A DNA stretch of 10,386 nucleotides from positions 1-10,386 of the IMG/VR virus record IMGVR_UViG_2529292735_000026. The stretch is one strand, 5' to 3'. Of this stretch, positions 1-10,386 are shown in pieces. A program made the translations under genes and the position numbers. Source of the stretch: a virus. Lineage: Duplodnaviria > Heunggongvirae > Uroviricota > Caudoviricetes. Position 1 is the first letter of the stretch. Every line of letters begins with the position of its first letter. A model generated the notes under the pieces. It was not told the origin of the DNA, did not search any database, and worked only from the letters and a program-made list of their open reading frames with translations.

Positions 1-369
1 ATGAATGGAATGGTGGAGAAGAATGGCACGCTGTCGAAAAAATCCAGACTGGGCGAAGCGTTCAGCTATGTACTGAATCAGTGGGACGCCCTCTGTTATT
101 ACAGTGATGACGGTCTGGCGGAGGTGGACAATAACACAGCGGAAAGAGCGCTTCGTGCAGTCTGTCTCGGAAAGAAAAATTACGTGTTCTTCGGTAGCGA
201 TCACGGCGGCGAGCGTGGAGCACTGCTGTACGGGCTGATCGGCACCTGCCGACTGAACGGTATCGATCCGGAAGCGTATCTGCGCCATATTCTGAGCGTA
301 CTGCCGGAATGGCCCTCCAACCGTGTTGACGAACTCCTGCCATGGAACGTAGTACTCACCAATAAATAA
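1..369 (+). CDS. IS66-family transposase, C-terminal fragment (5' end lies outside the window)
   Basis: Translation (…KNYVFFGSDHGGERGALLYGLIGTCRLNGIDPEAYLRHILSVLPEWPSNRVDELLPW…) resembles the conserved C-terminal region of IS66-family TnpC transposases as I recall them; ORF runs to the window edge; stop TAA at 367-369. Confidence 0.8.
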   Translation: MNGMVEKNGTLSKKSRLGEAFSYVLNQWDALCYYSDDGLAEVDNNTAERALRAVCLGKKNYVFFGSDHGGERGALLYGLIGTCRLNGIDPEAYLRHILSVLPEWPSNRVDELLPWNVVLTNK

Positions 370-399
370 GCGTCAATACGGTGCTCCGTTGACGCTTAC
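1..399 (+). mobile_element. IS66-family insertion sequence, right end (partial) with terminal inverted repeat at about 370-399
   Basis: Immediately after the transposase stop, 370-399 (gcgtcaatacggtgctccgttgacgcttac) reads in reverse complement as GTAAGCGTCAACGG…, the GTAA-initiated terminus typical of IS66-family IRs; sequence beyond 399 resumes in-frame phage tail-fibre-assembly coding sequence. Confidence 0.7.
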
Positions 400-762
400 G
401 ATAATATCATCCGCTATGTGGAAAAGGATGTGACAGCTATCAGACCGGATGGATTAAGTGTTGTTGAAGTGGCGGATATTACTGCTAACCGACGGGCGGA
501 CATTTCAGGGAACTGGATGTTTAAGGATGGCACAGTGATCAAACGAATTTATACGGCAGAGGAATTGCAACTGCAGGCAGAAAACCGGAAAGCCAGACTT
601 CTTGCAGATGCTGAATCCGTGATTTTGCCGCTAGAGCGTGCTGTCAGGCTGAACATGGCAACAGAGGAGGAGCGCACACGGCTGGAGGCTTGGGAACGCT
701 ACAGCGTTGTGGTCAGTCGTGTGGATCCTGCAAATCCTGAATGGCCGGAAATGCCGCAATAA
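400..762 (+). pseudogene. Tail fibre assembly protein (P2 G-like), 3' remnant truncated by the IS66 insertion
   Basis: Frame is open from the IS junction with no ATG or RBS (only a GTG at 418); translation ends …[34 protein letters not shown], the conserved C-terminal region of phage Tfa proteins (P2 G, lambda Tfa, Mu U); about 120 codons where an intact G-like protein is about 175 aa. Confidence 0.7.
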
Positions 763-948
763 GTTGTATGAACTCTGGTGTGAGCTTACATATCTATGGC
801 ACAGAGTAAAGCCTAATCTGACAGTCCGCTCTGTGCCAGGAGCGGAAGTTGCCAAGAGAACTCTTGCAAAGGTATGATAACGTAGGTGCTAAATAATCAT
901 GAACCATAATAAATTAAAGGTTTTTAAGTTAACTCTATGGCGTTTCTT

Positions 949-978
949 TTGCATGATGATTTTTATTTATTATATAAA
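949..978 (+). promoter_or_regulatory. Putative sigma70-type promoter for the 447-aa cargo ORF (TTGCAT, 18-nt spacer, TATAAA)
   Basis: TTGCAT at 949-954 and TATAAA at 973-978 inside a very AT-rich stretch, about 65 nt upstream of ATG 1043; pattern match only. Confidence 0.35.
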
Positions 979-1042
979 GCTTAAATATACATAATATTTA
1001 GCTTCATTTTTTTAGGTATTTTAAAGATTTAGAGGAATGTGA

Positions 1043-2386
1043 ATGGCTACTTATGCTTCTTATTTACCAGAATCACAAATTATCACTTTGTGCAAGGATT
1101 TCCCAGCGTTTACTGATCCTGAAAAATTAGATGGATTCATTAATCCAGAACAGTTTGGCGTGTTTTTTCATGAGTGGATTCATTTTCTTCACAATATTTC
1201 CACAATTAATGGGTTTTCTATTTTTTGCACGCAAAACATCCTGTGGTCTAATTTTCGCTGGGCAATGGACAATCAGGATGTATGTCTTGGTTCAAATGAC
1301 ATGGATCCAGCACATATCGAATCAAACAAAAATTTTCTCAGTTACATTCGTTCCAATAGGAGTCTGCATAAATGTAACTTACCTTATTATGTAAAAGTAA
1401 ACGACTTGTATTTTGAGGATGCAATAATCCATGACATGGAGGTTGCTGACGGTAGTGTTATATGTACATCATTAATAAAGTGTAGAATTTCTCATTCTGA
1501 AAACAAATACGATCTAGATTTAGGCGTGCTTGAAATACTTGAATCCGCAGCTTTTATGCTTGAATGTAAGTGTATTAATGCGATGAATGGCTTCCCTCAA
1601 GAGGCACCCTTTTATCCGTATCATACTATCAAGGGCTTAGCAGCGAAAATTGCTCCGTCATTAAATGATGAAGATATTATTTGTTGTATGTTAGCTTCTT
1701 TGCAATCTAATAACCCTCCCCAAGTATTATTCAATCTACTACATAAATGTGAATTATTACATTCTGATTGTAGGTATGAACATCTAGTGGCGGAGGTGAA
1801 AAAACAATTAAGCGAACAAGATCAAATAATAAGCGAGTCACTTAATCAAATAATTCAAATGATTCCTGTTGATGAACCGATGGGAAACTTTATCAAGCTT
1901 ACTCTTAACAGAATAAGTAACAATTTGAACTATAGAAAGCAAAAACCGTTTTTTGAGTTAGATATAATAAAAAAAATAGCAGAAAAAACTGAGTTTATGA
2001 ATGAAGTAATACAGAAATTCGGTGGTTGCACTATCATCCAGGTAAGACATGGAGATGATAATGAACCACAGCGTGATATTATGTATGACTTTTGCTTACC
2101 TGAAAATAATGATTCAATTTTATTTGGTTCGAAAATGCTACGCGCTTGTTTTCACTTTATATTTATTCACTTTAAACTTTCTGGTGAAATCATGAAGACA
2201 GAAGAATTAAATATTTCGCCGCGTAATAAATGCCCATTTTATACTGTTTGCTGTGCATCAATTCGAGCTAATAATAGTAATATCTGCGCTGAATCCCCTT
2301 GGAAATCAATGTCTATTGATGACAACAAAGGTTGTTATTATGCAGCAGCGATTAAAGCTACTAACCCACCAGTTTTGCCGGATTAA
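1043..2386 (+). CDS. Hypothetical protein, 447 aa; AT-rich cargo gene in the G-FI (Z/fun-equivalent) slot; HExxH motif near the N-terminus, cysteine-rich; candidate phage-exclusion or defence protein
   Basis: Long uninterrupted ORF; RBS AGAGGAA at 1029-1035 about 7 nt before the ATG; sampled 60-nt stretches are about 23-37% G+C against about 60% in the adjacent sheath gene; followed by a hairpin and an intrinsic terminator; no competing ORF on either strand between 860 and 2640. Confidence 0.85.
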   Translation: MATYASYLPESQIITLCKDFPAFTDPEKLDGFINPEQFGVFFHEWIHFLHNISTINGFSIFCTQNILWSNFRWAMDNQDVCLGSNDMDPAHIESNKNFLSYIRSNRSLHKCNLPYYVKVNDLYFEDAIIHDMEVADGSVICTSLIKCRISHSENKYDLDLGVLEILESAAFMLECKCINAMNGFPQEAPFYPYHTIKGLAAKIAPSLNDEDIICCMLASLQSNNPPQVLFNLLHKCELLHSDCRYEHLVAEVKKQLSEQDQIISESLNQIIQMIPVDEPMGNFIKLTLNRISNNLNYRKQKPFFELDIIKKIAEKTEFMNEVIQKFGGCTIIQVRHGDDNEPQRDIMYDFCLPENNDSILFGSKMLRACFHFIFIHFKLSGEIMKTEELNISPRNKCPFYTVCCASIRANNSNICAESPWKSMSIDDNKGCYYAAAIKATNPPVLPD

Positions 2387-2520
2387 GAATAGTGTTCTAT
2401 CTGATAAATATAAAATATTTAAGGTCAGGTCTGCTTATCGCTCAAAGCAGACTGTCAGATTTGATAACGTTTGGGCTATGTAAACCGTCAGTTGGAAAAT
2501 GAGTGAGTGCAAGTCAGGAC

Positions 2521-2548
2521 AGGCGGGCGGATTGCCCGCCTTTTCTTT
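2521..2548 (+). terminator. Rho-independent terminator downstream of the cargo ORF
   Basis: Perfect 8-bp GC-rich stem aggcgggc (2521-2528) / gcccgcct (2534-2541), 5-nt loop, followed by TTTCTTT. Confidence 0.6.
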
Positions 2549-2549
2549 A

Positions 2550-2640
2550 TCTGTTGTTTCATCCACTGACCAGCCAGGTCAAATAGCGCCTCATGCTCTG
2601 CACAACAGAAAATAGTTGCACCCATTAACCACGGAGTTAA
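2550..2640 (+). promoter_or_regulatory. Putative Ogr-dependent late promoter (P_F equivalent) upstream of FI
   Basis: Positional analogy to P2 P_F. A TGT-N12-cCA element (2555-2572) is a one-mismatch match to the TGT-N12-ACA dyad I recall for P2 late promoters, centred about 80 nt upstream of the FI ATG; no convincing -10 hexamer identified. Confidence 0.3.
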
Positions 2641-2644
2641 ACGG

Positions 2645-3835
2645 ATGAGTGACTATCATCACGGCGTGCAGGTGCTGGAGATTAACGACGGCACACGCGT
2701 CATTTCCACCGTATCCACTGCCATTGTCGGCATGGTCTGCACGGCCAGCGATGCGGATGCGGAAACCTTCCCCCTCAATAAACCTGTGCTGATTACCAAT
2801 GTGCAGAGTGCAATTGCAAAGGCCGGTAAAAAAGGCACGCTGGCGGCATCGTTGCAGGCCATCGCTGACCAGTCAAAACCGGTCACCGTTGTCGTGCGCG
2901 TGGAAGACGGCACCGGTGATGACGAGGAAACGAAACTCGCGCAGACCGTTTCTAATATTATCGGCACCACTGACGAAAACGGTCAGTACACCGGACTGAA
3001 AGCCCTGCTGGCGGCGGAGTCGGTAACCGGTGTTAAACCGCGTATTCTTGGTGTGCCGGGGCTGGATACCAAAGAGGTGGCTGTTGCACTGGCATCAGTC
3101 TGTCAGAAGCTGCGCGCTTTCGGATATATCAGCGCATGGGGCTGTAAGACCATTTCCGAGGTGAAAGCCTACCGCCAGAATTTCAGCCAGCGTGAGCTGA
3201 TGGTCATCTGGCCGGATTTCCTCGCATGGGATACGGTCACCAGTACCACCGCCACCGCGCATGCCACCGCCCGTGCGCTGGGTCTGCGCGCTAAAATCGA
3301 CCAGGAGCAGGGCTGGCATAAAACGCTGTCCAACGTTGGGGTAAACGGTGTTACCGGCATCAGCGCATCTGTATTCTGGGATTTGCAGGAGTCCGGCACC
3401 GATGCTGACCTGCTTAACGAGTCAGGCGTCACTACGCTGATTCGCCGTGACGGTTTCCGCTTCTGGGGTAACCGTACCTGCTCTGATGACCCGCTGTTCC
3501 TCTTTGAAAACTACACCCGCACCGCGCAGGTGCTGGCCGACACGATGGCTGAGGCGCACATGTGGGCGGTGGACAAGCCCATCACCGCAACGCTGATTCG
3601 CGACATCGTTGACGGCATCAATGCCAAATTCCGTGAGCTGAAAACAAACGGCTATATCGTGGATGCGACCTGCTGGTTCAGCGAAGAATCCAACGATGCG
3701 GAAACCCTCAAGGCCGGAAAACTGTATATCGACTACGACTATACCCCGGTGCCTCCTCTCGAAAACCTGACCCTGCGCCAGCGTATTACTGATAAATACC
3801 TGGCAAGTCTGGTCACCTCGGTTAACAGCAATTAA
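2645..3835 (+). CDS. FI: Contractile tail sheath protein (P2 gpFI-like), 396 aa
   Basis: N-terminus MSDYHHGVQVLEINDGTRVI… and length match P2 FI as I recall it; high G+C; syntenic with the following tail genes. Confidence 0.93.
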   Translation: MSDYHHGVQVLEINDGTRVISTVSTAIVGMVCTASDADAETFPLNKPVLITNVQSAIAKAGKKGTLAASLQAIADQSKPVTVVVRVEDGTGDDEETKLAQTVSNIIGTTDENGQYTGLKALLAAESVTGVKPRILGVPGLDTKEVAVALASVCQKLRAFGYISAWGCKTISEVKAYRQNFSQRELMVIWPDFLAWDTVTSTTATAHATARALGLRAKIDQEQGWHKTLSNVGVNGVTGISASVFWDLQESGTDADLLNESGVTTLIRRDGFRFWGNRTCSDDPLFLFENYTRTAQVLADTMAEAHMWAVDKPITATLIRDIVDGINAKFRELKTNGYIVDATCWFSEESNDAETLKAGKLYIDYDYTPVPPLENLTLRQRITDKYLASLVTSVNSN

Positions 3836-3847
3836 GGAGCCTGACCG

Positions 3848-4366
3848 ATGGCAATGCCGCGCAAACTCAAGTTAATGAACGTCTTTCTGAACGGCTACAA
3901 CTATCAGGGCGTCGCGAAGTCCGTCACGCTGCCAAAACTGACCCGTAAGCTCGAAAACTATCGCGGTGCGGGGATGAACGGCAGCGCACCGGTAGACCTC
4001 GGCCTTGATGACGATGCGCTGTCAATGGAGTGGTCGCTCGGTGGCTTCCCGGATTCGGTTATCTGGGAGCTTTACGCCGCAACCGGTGTGGATGCCGTAC
4101 CGATTCGTTTTGCAGGCTCTTACCAGCGCGACGATACCGGCGAAACGGTGGCCGTCGAGGTGGTCATGCGTGGACGTCAGAAAGAAATCGACACCGGCGA
4201 GGGCAAACAGGGAGAAGACACCGAGTCGAAAATCTCCGTGGTCTGCACCTATTTCCGGCTGACGATGGACGGTAAGGAGCTGGTCGAAATCGACACCATC
4301 AACATGATTGAGAAGGTGAACGGCGTCGACCGGCTGGAGCAACACCGCCGCAATATCGGCCTGTGA
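3848..4366 (+). CDS. FII: Tail tube protein (P2 gpFII-like), 172 aa
   Basis: Sits immediately downstream of the sheath gene with RBS AAGGAG; size and position match P2 FII. Confidence 0.92.
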   Translation: MAMPRKLKLMNVFLNGYNYQGVAKSVTLPKLTRKLENYRGAGMNGSAPVDLGLDDDALSMEWSLGGFPDSVIWELYAATGVDAVPIRFAGSYQRDDTGETVAVEVVMRGRQKEIDTGEGKQGEDTESKISVVCTYFRLTMDGKELVEIDTINMIEKVNGVDRLEQHRRNIGL

Positions 4367-4422
4367 TTTTCATCCGGTCAGCCTGGCTGACCGGTTAACC
4401 CCGATTCAGAAGTGAGAAAACC

Positions 4423-4698
4423 ATGAACAAAGAAAACGTCATTACCCTGGACAATCCGGTCAAACGTGGTGAGCAGGTTATCGAACAGGTCACGCTGATG
4501 AAACCCAATGCCGGGACGCTACGCGGTGTCAGTCTGGCTGCAGTCGCGAACTCCGAAGTCGATGCACTGATTAAAGTGCTGCCGCGCATGACGGCACCGA
4601 TGCTGACCGAGCAGGAAGTCGCCGCGCTGGAACTGCCTGACCTTGTGGCGCTGGCCGGTAAGGTGGTCGGTTTTTTGTCGCCGAACTCGGTGCAGTGA
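4423..4698 (+). CDS. E: Tail assembly chaperone gpE (P2 E-like), 91 aa
   Basis: Short ORF between the tube and tape-measure genes, the conserved position of tail chaperone genes; contains the slippery heptamer T_TTT_TTG at 4671-4677 near its 3' end. Confidence 0.9.
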   Translation: MNKENVITLDNPVKRGEQVIEQVTLMKPNAGTLRGVSLAAVANSEVDALIKVLPRMTAPMLTEQEVAALELPDLVALAGKVVGFLSPNSVQ

Positions 4699-4850
4699 CG
4701 TTTCCGAAAAATCTCTCGGTCGATGACCTGATGGCGGATGTGGCAGTGATATTTCACTGGCCGCCATCAGAACTGTATCCCATGAGCCTGACCGAACTCA
4801 TCACATGGCGCGAAAAGGCGCTCCGGCGAAGCGGAAACACGAATGAGTAA
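4423..4850 (+). CDS. E': gpE+E' fusion made by programmed -1 ribosomal frameshift at 4671-4677 (about 142 aa)
   Basis: The -1 frame is open from the slippery site T_TTT_TTG to a TAA at 4848-4850, overlapping the T start codon at 4843; mirrors the E/E' arrangement described for P2 and the G/GT chaperone of lambda. Confidence 0.75.
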
Positions 4851-7290
4851 CAATGTAAAATTACAGGTATTGCTCAGGGCTGTTGACCAGGCATCCCGCC
4901 CGTTTAAATCCATCCGCACAGCGAGCAAGTCGCTGTCGGGGGATATCCGGGAAACACAAAAATCACTGCGCGAGCTGAACGGTCACGCATCCCGTATTGA
5001 GGGATTTCGCAAGACCAGTGCGCAGCTCGCCGTGACTGGTCATGCACTTGAAAAGGCACGGCAGGAAGCCGAAGCCCTTGCCACACAGTTTAAAAACACC
5101 GAACGTCCGACCCGTGCTCAGGCGAAAGTGCTGGAATCCGCAAAGCGAGCGGCGGAGGACTTACAGGCGAAATATAACCGCCTGACGGATTCCGTTAAAC
5201 GCCAGCAGCGGGAACTGGCCGCTGTGGGAATTAATACCCGCAATCTTGCACATGATGAGCAGGGACTGAAAAACCGTATCAGTGAAACCACCGCACAGCT
5301 TAACCGGCAGCGTGACGCGCTGGCGCGTGTCAGTGCGCAACAGGCAAAACTTAACGCAGTAAAACAGCGCTATCAGGCAGGAAAGGAGCTGGCCGGAAAT
5401 ATGGCCTCAGTGGGCGCTGCCGGTGTGGGGATTGCGGCGGCGGGAACGATGGCCGGTGTTAAGCTGCTGATGCCCGGTTATGAATTTGCGCAGAAAAACT
5501 CAGAATTACAGGCCGTGCTCGGTGTGGCAAAAGACTCCGCCGAAATGGCCGCGCTACGCAAGCAGGCGCGCCAGCTCGGCGACAATACCGCCGCCTCGGC
5601 GGATGATGCGGCCGGTGCACAGATAATCATCGCGAAAGCGGGTGGGGATGTTGATGCCATTCAGGCGGCAACGCCGGTCACGCTGAATATGGCGCTGGCG
5701 AACCGTCGCACGATGGAAGAAAACGCCGCCCTGCTGATGGGGATGAAATCTGCCTTTCAGCTTTCAAACGATAAGGTTGCTCATATCGGGGATGTTCTCT
5801 CCATGACGATGAACAAAACCGCCGCCGATTTTGACGGTATGAGCGATGCGCTGACCTATGCCGCACCTGTGGCAAAAAATGCCGGTGTCAGCATTGAAGA
5901 AACCGCCGCAATGGTCGGGGCGCTGCATGATGCAAAAATCACAGGCTCAATGGCGGGGACGGGAAGCCGTGCCGTGTTAAGCCGCCTGCAGGCACCGACG
6001 GGAAAAGCATGGGATGCACTCAAAGAGCTTGGCGTGAAAACCTCAGACAGCAAGGGAAACACCCGGCCAATATTTACCATTCTGAAAGAAATGCAGGCCA
6101 GTTTTGAGAAAAACCGGCTCGGTACTGCCCAGCAGGCTGAATACATGAAAACTATTTTCGGGGAGGAGGCCAGCTCAGCCGCCGCCGTGCTGATGACCGC
6201 CGCCTCAACCGGAAAGCTGGACAAACTGACCGCTGCGTTTAAAGCCTCAAACGGGAAGACTGCCGAGCTGGTAAATATCATGCAGGACAACCTCGGCGGT
6301 GACTTTAAGGAGTTTCAGTCCGCTTATGAGGCGGTGGGGACAGACCTGTTTGACCAGCAGGAAGGCGCACTGCGCAAGCTCACACAGACGGCCACAAAGT
6401 ATGTGTTAAAACTCGACGGCTGGATCCAGAAAAACAAATCACTGGCGTCAACCATTGGCATCATTGCCGGTGGCGCGCTGGCGCTTATTGGCATCATCGG
6501 TGCAATTGGTCTTGTAGCCTGGCCGGTTATCACTGGCATCAATGCTATCATCGCGGCAGCAGGCGCAATGGGGGCAATCTTCACGACGGTTGGCAGTGCT
6601 GTTATGACGGCCATCGGGGCGATTAGCTGGCCGGTTGTGGCCGTGGTGGCCGCCATTGTCGCCGGGGCGTTGCTTATCCGTAAATACTGGGAGCCTGTCA
6701 GCGCATTCTTTGGCGGTGTGGTGGAAGGGCTGAAAGCGGCATTTGCGCCGGTGGGGGAACTGTTCACGCCACTTAAGCCGCTGTTTGACTGGCTGGGTGA
6801 AAAGTTACAGGCCGCGTGGCAGTGGTTTAAAAACCTGATTGCCCCGGTTAAAGCCACCCAGGACACCCTGAACCGTTGCCGTGACACGGGCGTCATGTTC
6901 GGGCAGGCACTGGCTGACGCGCTGATGCTGCCGCTTAATGCGTTCAACAAACTGCGCGGCGGTATTGACTGGGTACTGGAAAAACTCGGCGTCATCAACA
7001 AAGAGTCAGGCACGCTTGACCAGACTGCCGCCAGAACTCATGCCGCCACGTATGGCACCGGTGGTTATATTCCGGCGACCAGCTCTTATGCTGGCTATCA
7101 GGCTTATCAGCCAGTTACGGCACCGGCTGGCCGCTCTTATGTGGACCAGAGTAAAAACGAATATCACATCAACCTGACGGGCGGTACTGCGCAGGGGACA
7201 CAGCTCGACCGCCAGTTACAGGATGCGCTCGAAAAATACGAGCGGGATAAACGTGCGCGCGCCCGTGCCAGCATGATGCATGACGGTTAA
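4843..7290 (+). CDS. T: Tail tape measure protein (P2 gpT-like), 815 aa
   Basis: Long ORF with a coiled-coil-like N-terminal part, a Gly/Ala-rich hydrophobic segment (…IGIIAGGALALIGIIGAIGLVAWPVITGINAIIAAAGAMGAIF…) and position after E/E'. Confidence 0.93.
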   Translation: MSNNVKLQVLLRAVDQASRPFKSIRTASKSLSGDIRETQKSLRELNGHASRIEGFRKTSAQLAVTGHALEKARQEAEALATQFKNTERPTRAQAKVLESAKRAAEDLQAKYNRLTDSVKRQQRELAAVGINTRNLAHDEQGLKNRISETTAQLNRQRDALARVSAQQAKLNAVKQRYQAGKELAGNMASVGAAGVGIAAAGTMAGVKLLMPGYEFAQKNSELQAVLGVAKDSAEMAALRKQARQLGDNTAASADDAAGAQIIIAKAGGDVDAIQAATPVTLNMALANRRTMEENAALLMGMKSAFQLSNDKVAHIGDVLSMTMNKTAADFDGMSDALTYAAPVAKNAGVSIEETAAMVGALHDAKITGSMAGTGSRAVLSRLQAPTGKAWDALKELGVKTSDSKGNTRPIFTILKEMQASFEKNRLGTAQQAEYMKTIFGEEASSAAAVLMTAASTGKLDKLTAAFKASNGKTAELVNIMQDNLGGDFKEFQSAYEAVGTDLFDQQEGALRKLTQTATKYVLKLDGWIQKNKSLASTIGIIAGGALALIGIIGAIGLVAWPVITGINAIIAAAGAMGAIFTTVGSAVMTAIGAISWPVVAVVAAIVAGALLIRKYWEPVSAFFGGVVEGLKAAFAPVGELFTPLKPLFDWLGEKLQAAWQWFKNLIAPVKATQDTLNRCRDTGVMFGQALADALMLPLNAFNKLRGGIDWVLEKLGVINKESGTLDQTAARTHAATYGTGGYIPATSSYAGYQAYQPVTAPAGRSYVDQSKNEYHINLTGGTAQGTQLDRQLQDALEKYERDKRARARASMMHDG

Positions 7291-7304
7291 GGAGGTGACG
7301 AAAA

Positions 7305-7784
7305 ATGATGCTCGCGTTAGGTATGTTTGTTTTTATGCGCCAGACGCTGCCACACCAGACCATGCAGCGTGAATCAGATTATCGCTGGCCGTCAAATTCC
7401 TGTATCGGTAAACGGGATGCCTTTCAGTTTCTCGGTGTGGGTGAGGAAAACATCACGCTTGCCGGTGTGCTTTATCCTGAACTGACCGGCGGGAAGCTGA
7501 CGATGACCACGCTCAGGCTGATGGCAGAGGAAGGCCGGGCGTGGCCGTTGCTGGATGGCACCGGCATGATTTACGGCATGTATGTCATCAGCAGGGTGAG
7601 TGAAACAGGGAGTATTTTCTTTGCAGACGGCACACCCCGGAAAATTGATTTTACGCTGTCGCTCACCCGCGTTGATGAATCACTGGCCGCGCTTTATGGC
7701 GATATCGGTAAACAGGCGGAATCGCTCATCGGTAAGGCTGGCAGTATGGCGACTAAATTCACGGGTATGACGGGGGCGGGATAA
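7305..7784 (+). CDS. U: Tail protein gpU (P2 U-like), 159 aa
   Basis: RBS AAGGAGG upstream; syntenic position between T and D; stop overlaps the D start (ATAATG). Confidence 0.9.
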   Translation: MMLALGMFVFMRQTLPHQTMQRESDYRWPSNSCIGKRDAFQFLGVGEENITLAGVLYPELTGGKLTMTTLRLMAEEGRAWPLLDGTGMIYGMYVISRVSETGSIFFADGTPRKIDFTLSLTRVDESLAALYGDIGKQAESLIGKAGSMATKFTGMTGAG

Positions 7785-8947
7785 TGCTGGATGCACTGAC
7801 ATTTGATGCAGGCAGTACGCTGACGCCGGATTACATGCTGATGCTCGACAGCAGGGATATTACCGGCAATATCAGCGACCGTCTGATGAGTATGACCCTG
7901 ACGGATAACCGGGGTTTTGAGGCTGACCAGCTTGATATTGAACTGAACGATGCCGACGGGCAGGTCGGGCTGCCGGTTCGTGGCGCTGTCCTGACGGTGT
8001 ATATCGGCTGGAAAGGTTTTGCCCTGGTATGCAAAGGGAAATTCACCGTTGATGAGGTTGAACACCGGGGCGCGCCGGATGTGGTCACCATCCGCGCCCG
8101 GAGTGCAGATTTCCGCGGGACGCTCAATTCCCGCCGTGAAGGTTCCTGGCATGACACCACGCTCGGTGCGATTGTTGAGGCGATAGCCTCCCGTAACAGG
8201 CTGGAAGCCAGTGTCGCTCCGTCACTGGCCGGAATTAAAATCCCGCACATCGACCAGTCGCAGGAGTCTGATGCGAAATTCCTGACCCGTCTTGCAGAAC
8301 GCAACGGCGGTGAGGTGTCGGTAAAAATGGGAAAATTGTTGTTTCTCAAAGCGGGGCAGGGGGTGACGGCCAGCGGTAAGAAAATCCCGCAGGTCACCAT
8401 CACCCGCAGCGACGGCGACCGTCATCATTTTGCGATTGCTGACCGTGGAGCCTACACCGGCGTAACGGCAAAGTGGTTACACACCAAAGACCCGAAGCCG
8501 CAAAAGCAGAAGGTAAAACTGAAACGCAAAAAGAAAGAAAAACACCTGCGCGCACTGGAGCACCCGAAAGCGAAACCGGTCAGGCAGAAGATAGCGCCCA
8601 AAGTGCCGGAAGCGCGCGAAGGTGAATACATGGCCGGTGAGGCTGATAACGTTTTTGCCCTGACCACGGTATATGCCACGAAAGCACAGGCCATGCGCGC
8701 CGCTCAGGCGAAGTGGGACAAACTGCAACGGGGCGTTGCGGAGTTCTCCATCAGCCTTGCCACTGGTCGGGCTGATATTTACACGGAAACGCCGGTCAGA
8801 GTGTCAGGCTTTAAGCGCGTCATAGACGAGCAGGACTGGACAATCACTAAGGTGACACATTTTCTGAATAATAGCGGCTTCACGACGTCCTTGGAGCTTG
8901 AGGTCAGGCTTTCTGATGTGGAGTACGAAACAGAAGATGATGAGTGA
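7784..8947 (+). CDS. D: Tail protein gpD (P2 D-like), 387 aa
   Basis: Translationally coupled to U; size and position match P2 D; contains a Lys-rich segment (…KPQKQKVKLKRKKKEKH…). Confidence 0.9.
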   Translation: MLDALTFDAGSTLTPDYMLMLDSRDITGNISDRLMSMTLTDNRGFEADQLDIELNDADGQVGLPVRGAVLTVYIGWKGFALVCKGKFTVDEVEHRGAPDVVTIRARSADFRGTLNSRREGSWHDTTLGAIVEAIASRNRLEASVAPSLAGIKIPHIDQSQESDAKFLTRLAERNGGEVSVKMGKLLFLKAGQGVTASGKKIPQVTITRSDGDRHHFAIADRGAYTGVTAKWLHTKDPKPQKQKVKLKRKKKEKHLRALEHPKAKPVRQKIAPKVPEAREGEYMAGEADNVFALTTVYATKAQAMRAAQAKWDKLQRGVAEFSISLATGRADIYTETPVRVSGFKRVIDEQDWTITKVTHFLNNSGFTTSLELEVRLSDVEYETEDDE

Positions 8948-9028
8948 TGTTTTTATTTTATCTATTTGTTTTATAAGGATAAATTAACTAGAATGGCACT
9001 ATCAACAAAACCGGAAGAGGTGCTCGCG

Positions 9029-9247
9029 ATGTTTCATTGTCCTTTATGCCAGCATGCCGCACATGCGCGTACAAGCCGCTATATCACTGACACGACAAAA
9101 GAGCGTTATCACCAGTGTCAGAACGTGAATTGCAGCGCCACGTTCATCACCTATGAGTCGGTACAGAGATACATCGTGAAGCCGGGAGAAGTCCACGCCG
9201 TAAGGCCGCACCCGTTGCCGTCAGGGCAGCAAATTATGTGGATGTGA
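9029..9247 (+). CDS. ogr: Late transcription activator Ogr (zinc-finger), 72 aa
   Basis: Translation MFHCPLCQHAAHARTSRYITDTTKERYHQCQNVNCSATFITYESVQRYIVKPGEVHAVRPHPLPSGQQIMWM matches P2 Ogr as I recall it, with the C-x2-C…C-x4-C zinc finger; ATG 9029 chosen over the upstream TTG (8966) and ATG (8993) because of the GAGG RBS spacing and the canonical 72-aa length. Confidence 0.9.
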   Translation: MFHCPLCQHAAHARTSRYITDTTKERYHQCQNVNCSATFITYESVQRYIVKPGEVHAVRPHPLPSGQQIMWM

Positions 9248-9251
9248 TCAC

Positions 9252-9285
9252 AAAAATAGCCCCTCAGTTGAGGGGCTTTATTTAT
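9252..9285 (+). terminator. Rho-independent terminator after ogr (end of the late/tail transcription unit)
   Basis: 9-bp stem agcccctca (9258-9266) / tgaggggct (9269-9277) with a 2-nt loop, flanked by an A-run upstream and TTATTTAT downstream. Confidence 0.6.
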
Positions 9286-9291
9286 GGTCGA

Positions 9292-9320
9292 TGTGGACGC
9301 TATGTGGACAGCGGTTGACA
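9292..9320 (+). other. Putative integrase arm-type binding sites in attR (direct repeats TGTGGAC-G, TGTGGACA, GTTGACA)
   Basis: Three direct repeats at 9292, 9303 and 9314 with roughly one helical turn spacing; TGTGGACA is, to my recollection, the arm-site consensus of P2 integrase; located between ogr and host DNA where the attR arm is expected. Confidence 0.5.
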
Positions 9321-9483: not shown

Positions 9484-10386
9484 ATGAATCAATCTTATGG
9501 ACGGCTGGTCAGTCGGGCGGCGATTGCTGCGACGGCGATGGCTTCGTTGCTATTGCTGATTAAAATTTTTGCATGGTGGTATACCGGGTCGGTGAGTATT
9601 CTCGCCGCGCTGGTGGATTCGCTGGTGGATATCGGCGCGTCGTTGACGAATTTACTGGTGGTGCGATATTCCCTGCAACCTGCCGACGATAATCACTCGT
9701 TTGGTCACGGTAAAGCAGAGTCCCTCGCGGCGCTGGCGCAAAGTATGTTTATCTCCGGTTCGGCACTATTCCTGTTTTTGACGGGTATTCAACATCTGAT
9801 ATCTCCAACACCGATGACAGATCCAGGCGTCGGGGTTATCGTGACAATTGTGGCGCTAATTTGTACGATTATCCTTGTCTCGTTTCAGCGTTGGGTGGTG
9901 CGCCGGACGCAAAGCCAGGCGGTGCGGGCTGATATGCTACATTACCAGTCTGATGTTATGATGAACGGCGCAATTCTGCTGGCGCTGGGGTTGTCCTGGT
10001 ACGGCTGGCATCGCGCCGATGCTCTGTTTGCATTGGGAATCGGCATCTATATTTTATATAGCGCGTTACGCATGGGATATGAGGCGGTACAGTCATTACT
10101 GGATCGCGCATTGCCTGATGAGGAACGGCAAGAAATTATTGATATCGTGACTTCCTGGCCGGGTGTTAGCGGCGCTCACGATCTTCGCACGCGGCAGTCA
10201 GGGCCGACCCGCTTTATTCAGATTCATTTGGAAATGGAAGACTCTCTGCCTTTGGTTCAGGCACATATGGTGGCGGATCAGGTAGAGCAGGCTATTTTAC
10301 GGCGTTTTCCGGGATCGGATGTGATTATCCATCAGGACCCCTGTTCCGTCGTACCCAGGGAGGGTAAACGGTCTATGCTTTCATAA
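9484..10386 (+). CDS. fieF: Cation diffusion facilitator family ferrous-iron/zinc efflux transporter FieF (YiiP), 300 aa
   Basis: Translation [49 protein letters not shown]… matches E. coli FieF/YiiP as I recall it; RBS GGGAG 5-6 nt upstream of ATG 9484; multiple TM helices followed by a cytoplasmic C-terminal domain; stop TAA at window end. Confidence 0.93.

Follow-up and report, generated by a model that had tools for sequence, protein, structure and literature searches.

Insertion of IS elements into prophage structural genes is a textbook route to cryptic prophages, and the IS knock-out of a prophage gene G that we analyse here is an event of this already known kind. In P2 itself, G is the last gene of the V-W-J-I-H-G operon, and FI opens a separate late operon. 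The G product, gpG, is needed for the assembly of the P2 tail fibres (PMC9594776). Proteins of this type (Tfa) are modular; in the passage of PMC9608196 that draws on North et al. 2019, the N-terminal domain binds the fibre while a conserved C-terminal helical domain trimerises. The intact allele of the gene described below encodes a 175-aa member of the Caudo_TAP family that aligns end to end with the Tfa (gpU) of phage Mu (PDB 5YVQ_B, E 1e-82, over all 175 residues). The copy studied here differs from TfaMu in lacking residues 1-55, which are part of the N-terminal fibre-binding domain (PMC9608196).

The Z/fun locus is recognised as variable in P2, and defective P2-like prophages with conserved defence cargo have been documented (PMC13586616). 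In these elements an inactivated core gene likewise lies beside an intact hotspot cargo. They contain multiple pseudogenes or are incomplete, however, whereas the prophage of Escherichia coli DEC14C is otherwise undecayed and has a cargo without a demonstrated defence role. Its closest intact counterpart is the prophage of APEC O2-211 (NZ_CP006834.2, about 4837167-4870356), which runs from int to ogr over ~33 kb between cpxP and fieF. The site, gene order and cargo are the same as those of the DEC14C prophage, but G is an uninterrupted gene of 175 codons, without IS2 and without ISEc47. For the insertion sequence the reference is the ISEc47 copy of E. coli 120899 (NZ_CP025916.1 414505-417045), to which both ends found in DEC14C are 99.4-99.7% identical. 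It has the same termini (GTAAGCGT...ACGCTTAC) and an 8-bp duplication, and comprises tnpA-tnpB-tnpC. The DEC14C copy differs in that it has been read in two pieces on two contigs, with 399 bp of it in our sequence, and in having an extra A in tnpC and two AAAA to AAA contractions that may be sequencing errors.

The right arm of the DEC14C prophage

The DNA analysed (the window, 10,386 nucleotides) corresponds, at 100% identity, to positions 268-10653 of contig AIHM01000068.1 in the draft assembly of E. coli DEC14C (GCA_000250455.2). The start of this contig falls within ISEc47, and the left side of the interrupted region is held on the preceding contig of the same assembly, AIHM01000067.1 (locus L007). 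The host element, a P2-like prophage, occupies a site between cpxP and fieF. Pfam matches and gene order over the window and loci L004, L007 and L010 reveal the P2-like (Peduoviridae) late-gene synteny H-G-(hotspot)-FI-FII-E-E'-T-U-D-ogr; from the open reading frames and Pfam the window is the right arm of the prophage, with the cargo gene in the G-FI (Z/fun) hotspot. All the features of the window described here lie on the + strand.

The P2-type tail-gene block (2645-8947) was assigned with Pfam and consists of FI (sheath, 2645-3835), FII (tube, 3848-4366), E (4423-4698), E' (4695-4850), T (tape measure, 4843-7290), U (7305-7784) and D (7784-8947), all of them full length, with gene lengths equal to those of intact relatives. 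The last prophage gene encodes an ogr-type late transcription activator, a 72-aa Ogr_Delta protein (9029-9247; L004 9296-9514), the counterpart of which in APEC O2-211 is annotated ogrK. The right boundary of the prophage lies between 9247 and 9418, and past it is the host gene fieF, a CDF cation efflux gene (9484-10386; Pfam Cation_efflux and ZT_dimer).

Between G and the cargo gene there is an intergenic region (763-1042), within which homology among P2-like prophages with other cargoes stops ~85-95 nt past the G stop codon. The five T residues at 960-964 are six in the relatives. A terminator and promoter scan of window 300-1100 returned nothing beyond chance; the single promoter-like site of the G-to-cargo region, at 849-878, is not above chance expectation.

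ISEc47 and the interruption of gene G

The window opens with the end of a transposase gene. The translation of 1-369 matches DDE_Tnp_IS66 (PF03050, E 6.5e-19) and DDE_Tnp_IS66_C (PF13817, E 5e-17) in Pfam, and positions 293-385 of the 387 of the NCBIfam model transpos_IS66 (NF033517). What is present here of tnpC, the gene for the IS66-family DDE transposase, is its 3′-terminal 122 codons, with the stop codon TAA at 367-369; after them comes the non-coding right terminus of the element, including its terminal inverted repeat (370-399). Together these form the right-hand 399 bp of ISEc47 (1-399, IS nt 2143-2541). Many E. coli genomes contain copies with the annotation 'IS66-like element ISEc47 family transposase', to which this stretch is 99.7% identical. 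Five complete copies of ISEc47 are all 2541 bp long, start with GTAAGCGT and share the end ...CTCCGTTGACGCTTAC (...GACGCTTAC), and every one is flanked by a perfect 8-bp duplication, of varied sequence. Because these five copies end identically, the terminus at window 399 is exact, and the order of transposase end and IS terminus proposed in the preliminary description is correct to the nucleotide. The right end ...ACGCTTAC and the left end GTAAGCGT... are complementary, and when the two ends are compared, the terminal inverted repeats agree in all of the first 8 nt and in 10 of the first 11. As to target choice, TAATAT is common to two ISEc47 sites, but no consensus holds over five.

Reference copies nearly identical to the DEC14C element carry tnpA-tnpB-tnpC. 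In DEC14C itself the element is assembled only as its left 539 nt (the start of tnpA) and right 666 nt (the end of tnpC), which align with nt 3-541 and 1877-2541 of a single reference IS at 99.4-99.7% identity; the interior, nt 542-1876 (~1335 bp), is covered by neither contig. The transposase is called in two pieces in the source contig. There is an extra A at window 9-10 (GGAATGG, compared with GGATGG in the ISEc47 copy of locus L002), and among the complete-genome matches listed the best extend over 398 nt as against the 399 nt of the query. If real, this base would shift the transposase frame just upstream of the reading frame in the window, but it is probably a homopolymer sequencing error.

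From base 400 the megablast matches change to 'tail fiber assembly protein'. Window 400-762 is 100% identical to nt 166-528 of G in APEC O2-211, with the stop codon at 760-762. The intact gene is 528 nt long (175 codons), so that G resumes at codon 56, and the window lacks 55 of its 175 codons (31%). The remnant, codons 56-175 and stop, matches Caudo_TAP (PF02413) over positions 24-131 of 131 with 102.6 bits (cut-off 22.1), and phrog_136 over positions 55-177 of 178 (E 3.9e-50). Thus ISEc47 lies inside a P2-like G at exactly the boundary where the preliminary description had placed an IS66-family insertion truncating the tail-fibre-assembly gene. That description also had G resuming in frame with neither start codon nor ribosome-binding site, and this too is borne out: the G frame coincides with the transposase frame, with the TAA of 367-369 between them, and the IS-G junction has no ATG or Shine-Dalgarno sequence, leaving the remnant without a promoter or ribosome-binding site of its own. 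Reading in frame from the junction, the earliest codons that could serve as starts are GTG at 418 and ATG at 517; no exact protein is on record for the 114-aa product starting at the GTG, while the 81-aa version from ATG 517 is recorded. The G of the window is a pseudogene fragment. A complete two-domain Tfa with its own start codon is not encoded by the G of DEC14C: ISEc47 severs codons 1-55 from the rest, and a second element, IS2, additionally separates off codons 1-37.

As both the window and its contig end within the IS, the window alone excludes nothing about what lies to the left, and ISEc47 is present in multiple copies in many E. coli. The ISEc47 end might in principle mark a deletion or inversion between two copies, with the left part of the prophage lost or moved. 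The evidence that decides this comes from the end of contig AIHM01000067.1, which contains, in order, H, G nt 1-110, IS2, G nt 106-173 and the left end of ISEc47. The second G segment ends ...GACAAAGATAATAT, including the octamer GATAATAT, and the ISEc47 left end (GTAAGCGTAAAGCC...) then runs for 539 nt to the end of the contig, oriented like the right end present in the window. The octamer GATAATAT stands immediately before the left end of ISEc47 (L007 11501-11508) and again directly after its right end (window 400-407, G nt 166-173), as the two copies of an 8-bp target-site duplication. In this way the three things that the preliminary description had suggested looking for on the left, namely the other IS end, the target-site duplication and the 5′ part of G (nt 1-110 and 106-173), are all located on one contig. 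The duplications match and G is contiguous across the element, running to nt 173 on the left and from nt 166 on the right. This is therefore a simple insertion of ISEc47 with no rearrangement. Recombination between two independent copies would have left no matching duplications, whereas here the complementary junction is in the same assembly with an identical octamer and the same orientation; moreover the late genes that precede G, capsid through H, are still there, 99.96% identical to those of the intact prophage. A rearrangement is largely refuted by these observations, and we hold it to be highly improbable. The N-terminal third of G that was said to be missing is indeed absent from the window, at 31% of the codons, but it has been displaced rather than lost, since it is found on AIHM01000067.1.

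The second insertion is a 1331-bp element of the IS3 family (L007 10110-11440), 99.7% identical to elements annotated IS3 family transposase, with AACTG on both sides as a 5-bp duplication. We take it to be IS2 from its terminal sequence. It is located at G nt 106-110, 57 bp upstream of the ISEc47 site. With both IS2 and ISEc47 in the gene, G is therefore split into three pieces. A predicted 58-aa N-terminal fragment of G was wrong, as the real product is altered by IS2 and a change in a T run; a homology search with that prediction identified P0056, a 52-aa DEC14C protein encoded at the end of AIHM01000067.1.

We infer from the matching duplications, rather than by direct reading, that one plain copy of ISEc47 bridges AIHM01000067 and AIHM01000068. 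The part of the element covered by neither contig leaves room for two ISEc47 copies that moved the DNA flanked by them, or for a further element in the unassembled 1.3 kb, and IS elements do cluster in G itself, with IS2 only 57 bp away. Such a composite or nested structure is less parsimonious, however; all five complete ISEc47 copies are plain elements of 2541 bp, and short-read assemblers break contigs at any multi-copy repeat. We regard it as very unlikely. The junction between IS and G might also be a chimeric join made at a repeat by the assembler, given that it is present in one public assembly only and that the draft has visible sequence errors. Yet the two reciprocal junctions are found, each on its own contig, and the 8-bp duplication is exact and abuts the very termini of the IS; a chimera is rejected because it would not reproduce this arrangement, and its probability is negligible.

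Tail-fibre assembly and the age of the insertions

What has happened to the prophage is thus, with high probability, a simple insertion of ISEc47 into G with IS2 upstream of it, by which the full-length chaperone has been lost and the phage made defective. We propose that a complete ISEc47 (tnpA, tnpB and a DDE tnpC) transposed into codons 56-58 of G, duplicating GATAATAT; IS2 is likewise inserted 57 bp upstream, with AACTG duplicated at nt 106-110. As the contigs of the draft end within the multi-copy IS, the window has only the right end of the element and the 3′ two-thirds of G. A gene in three pieces can yield no full-length chaperone, and a protein translated from the remnant would be missing residues 1-55 of the N-terminal domain. 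On this basis chaperone function is likely to be lost. Without gpG the gpH fibres would not be assembled, and induction of the prophage would be expected to release fibreless, non-adsorbing particles unless another Tfa, which further prophages of DEC14C may encode, were to complement in trans; the intact prophage of APEC O2-211 carries a single G. The insertions are not expected to be polar on the sheath and tube genes, since FI starts a late operon of its own.

The prophage is therefore described, as in the preliminary description, as probably defective and unable to make infectious particles, a fair inference given that G is cut twice and that gpG is required for fibre assembly in P2 (PMC9594776). 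It follows that the P2-like prophage of DEC14C is unlikely to give infectious particles, or to help P4-like satellites to spread. The locus also provides a clean worked example of a draft contig end that hides the other half of a simple insertion.

Comparison with APEC O2-211 shows how recent the event is. Apart from the insertions, the two prophages differ over ~19 kb by 2 SNPs and three 1-nt homopolymer gaps. Both SNPs and two of the 1-nt gaps fall in the 10.1 kb upstream of the IS2 site, while window 400-9300 has 0 SNPs and one 1-nt gap. The cargo gene and FI-FII-E-E'-T-U-D-ogr have zero substitutions, and in this respect the cargo and tail module are as intact as they were said to be. All nine SNPs between the window and APEC O2-211 lie at or past 9418, on the host side, within 969 bp of flanking host DNA (fieF). 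The contrast between 0 substitutions in the prophage and 9 in its flank indicates the same prophage in different host backgrounds at one cpxP/fieF site, which implies that it has spread horizontally, and recently. The disrupted G allele itself is very recent and, in the collections searched, specific to this strain.

The three gaps are A7 to A6 (L007 5192), T7 to T6 in the 5′ G fragment (L007 10084-10090) and T6 to T5 (window 960-964). The IS fragments contain, besides the extra A at window 9-10, two AAAA to AAA contractions (L007 11932 and 11945) and an N (L007 11871). Every single-base indel of the DEC14C draft relative to nearly identical sequences is a change in homopolymer length; as they stand, these indels would shift the frames of the transposase, the 5′ G fragment and the gene at the orf30 position. 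They are probably sequencing errors, and the apparent frameshifts in the 5′ G fragment (T7 to T6) and the transposase have been given no weight.

Other G alleles, the cargo gene and domestication

How widespread is the interruption of G? None of 5426 complete E. coli genomes contains the IS-G junction, and a 32-mer across it (window 387-418, exact) has no match in the GTDB species representatives or the JGI metagenomes; in the collections searched the junction was found only in the source assembly. H, G and the cargo gene are uninterrupted in 12 of the 12 complete E. coli genomes with the same arrangement of G plus cargo. Literature searches on DEC14C and on WP_000257039 returned nothing.

A different disrupted allele is found in GCA_964045455.1 (L003 7324-9904) and in the Logan assembly SRR21143704 (L006 1-30), where an IS21-family element (rve and IstB_IS21) is inserted at G nt 187-192. 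It belongs to the same type of prophage (99.86% identity over 10 kb) with the same cargo, and G is likewise split by an IS in its 5′ third. It differs from the DEC14C allele in the family of the IS, in the site, and in having a single insertion. Counting both lineages, one 90-bp stretch of G has thus been entered by three different IS elements, each of another family. This stretch has a GC content of 37%, lower than 87% of the 100-nt windows of the prophage.

The cargo ORF (1043-2386; 34% GC) is intact and encodes a protein of 447 aa. The protein has no match in Pfam, NCBIfam or the PDB sequences, nor in PADLOC-DB v2.0.0 at E values up to 1, and so is not among the known defence proteins of that collection; it is assigned to phrog_15354, a family of unknown function. 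Homologues fall into 36 clusters in Gammaproteobacteria. When the query is aligned with 26 of them, H43, E44 and H47 (HExxH) are invariant, as are four cysteines, and several glutamates are conserved. An AlphaFold2 model built from the family alignment has a pLDDT of 92 and a pTM of 0.92, and has no fold relative in the PDB or BFVD. The homologues are single genes in variable contexts, such as the cargo end of a Tn7-like transposon in Rheinheimera, a position beside a reverse-transcriptase and AAA ATPase pair and IS elements on an Enterobacter-like contig, and a place after the trp operon in Aeromonas. These contexts would fit a mobile accessory or defence gene, without proving it. The cargo is a candidate for a new metallopeptidase-like accessory or defence gene, and is a more promising target than the IS insertion.

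Has G been inactivated by selection? The preliminary description spoke of a domesticating prophage, retained for its cargo. Its adaptive form would be that loss of G was selected, keeping the cargo and ending phage production, with recurrent IS hits in G as the signature. The position of the cargo in the Z/fun hotspot agrees with this, as do the documented defective P2-like prophages with conserved defence cargo, and the occurrence of IS2 and ISEc47 in DEC14C together with the IS21-family element within 90 bp of G in two lineages. The recurrence came to light by searching with the G remnant itself, however, and is subject to ascertainment bias; the AT-rich region that is struck may be no more than a preferred target, and a second insertion is neutral once G is dead. 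G is, moreover, intact in all 12 complete genomes that have this cargo. Nor is there a differential signal of conservation, since every gene of the prophage, and not the cargo alone, is essentially identical to that of its intact relative. The cargo and all the other genes are intact because there has been no time for decay, and an event so recent leaves no signal by which selection for the cargo could be supported. Neither 'domesticating' nor selection for the cargo is upheld, the prophage being otherwise undecayed with its 2 SNPs and three homopolymer gaps. Adaptive domestication is accordingly unlikely in our judgement. We are equally doubtful of its furthest extension, in which repeated, independent IS knock-outs of G would have been selected to lock in an undescribed single-protein, metallopeptidase-like HExxH cargo, anti-phage or otherwise of benefit to the host, with a fold unlike solved structures. 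The locus is a warning that domestication should not be read from an insertion too young to bear a selective signal. The reading we prefer remains the simple ISEc47 insertion with IS2 upstream.

There are some further variants of G. Frame-shifted products are also encoded in other assemblies: in P0056 and P0057, the latter from Logan assemblies, the frame changes within the T7 run (G nt 85-91), and in P0041 it does so later, past codon 42. Either mutations really do concentrate in the T7 run or sequencing errors recur there. At L005 9803-10246 (ENA metagenome NODE_1359), G nt 85-528 is joined at the same T7 run to an unrelated module with DNA polymerase III alpha/PHP, HNH, methylase and integrase genes; this is probably a chimeric metagenome assembly and not a real junction. 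Lastly, in NZ_OZ546922.1 (420637-422747) the H-G region is ~1.2 kb longer than the query and has two genes annotated 'tail fiber assembly protein', which may reflect a fibre-chaperone cassette that has been duplicated or can invert, or else a further insertion.
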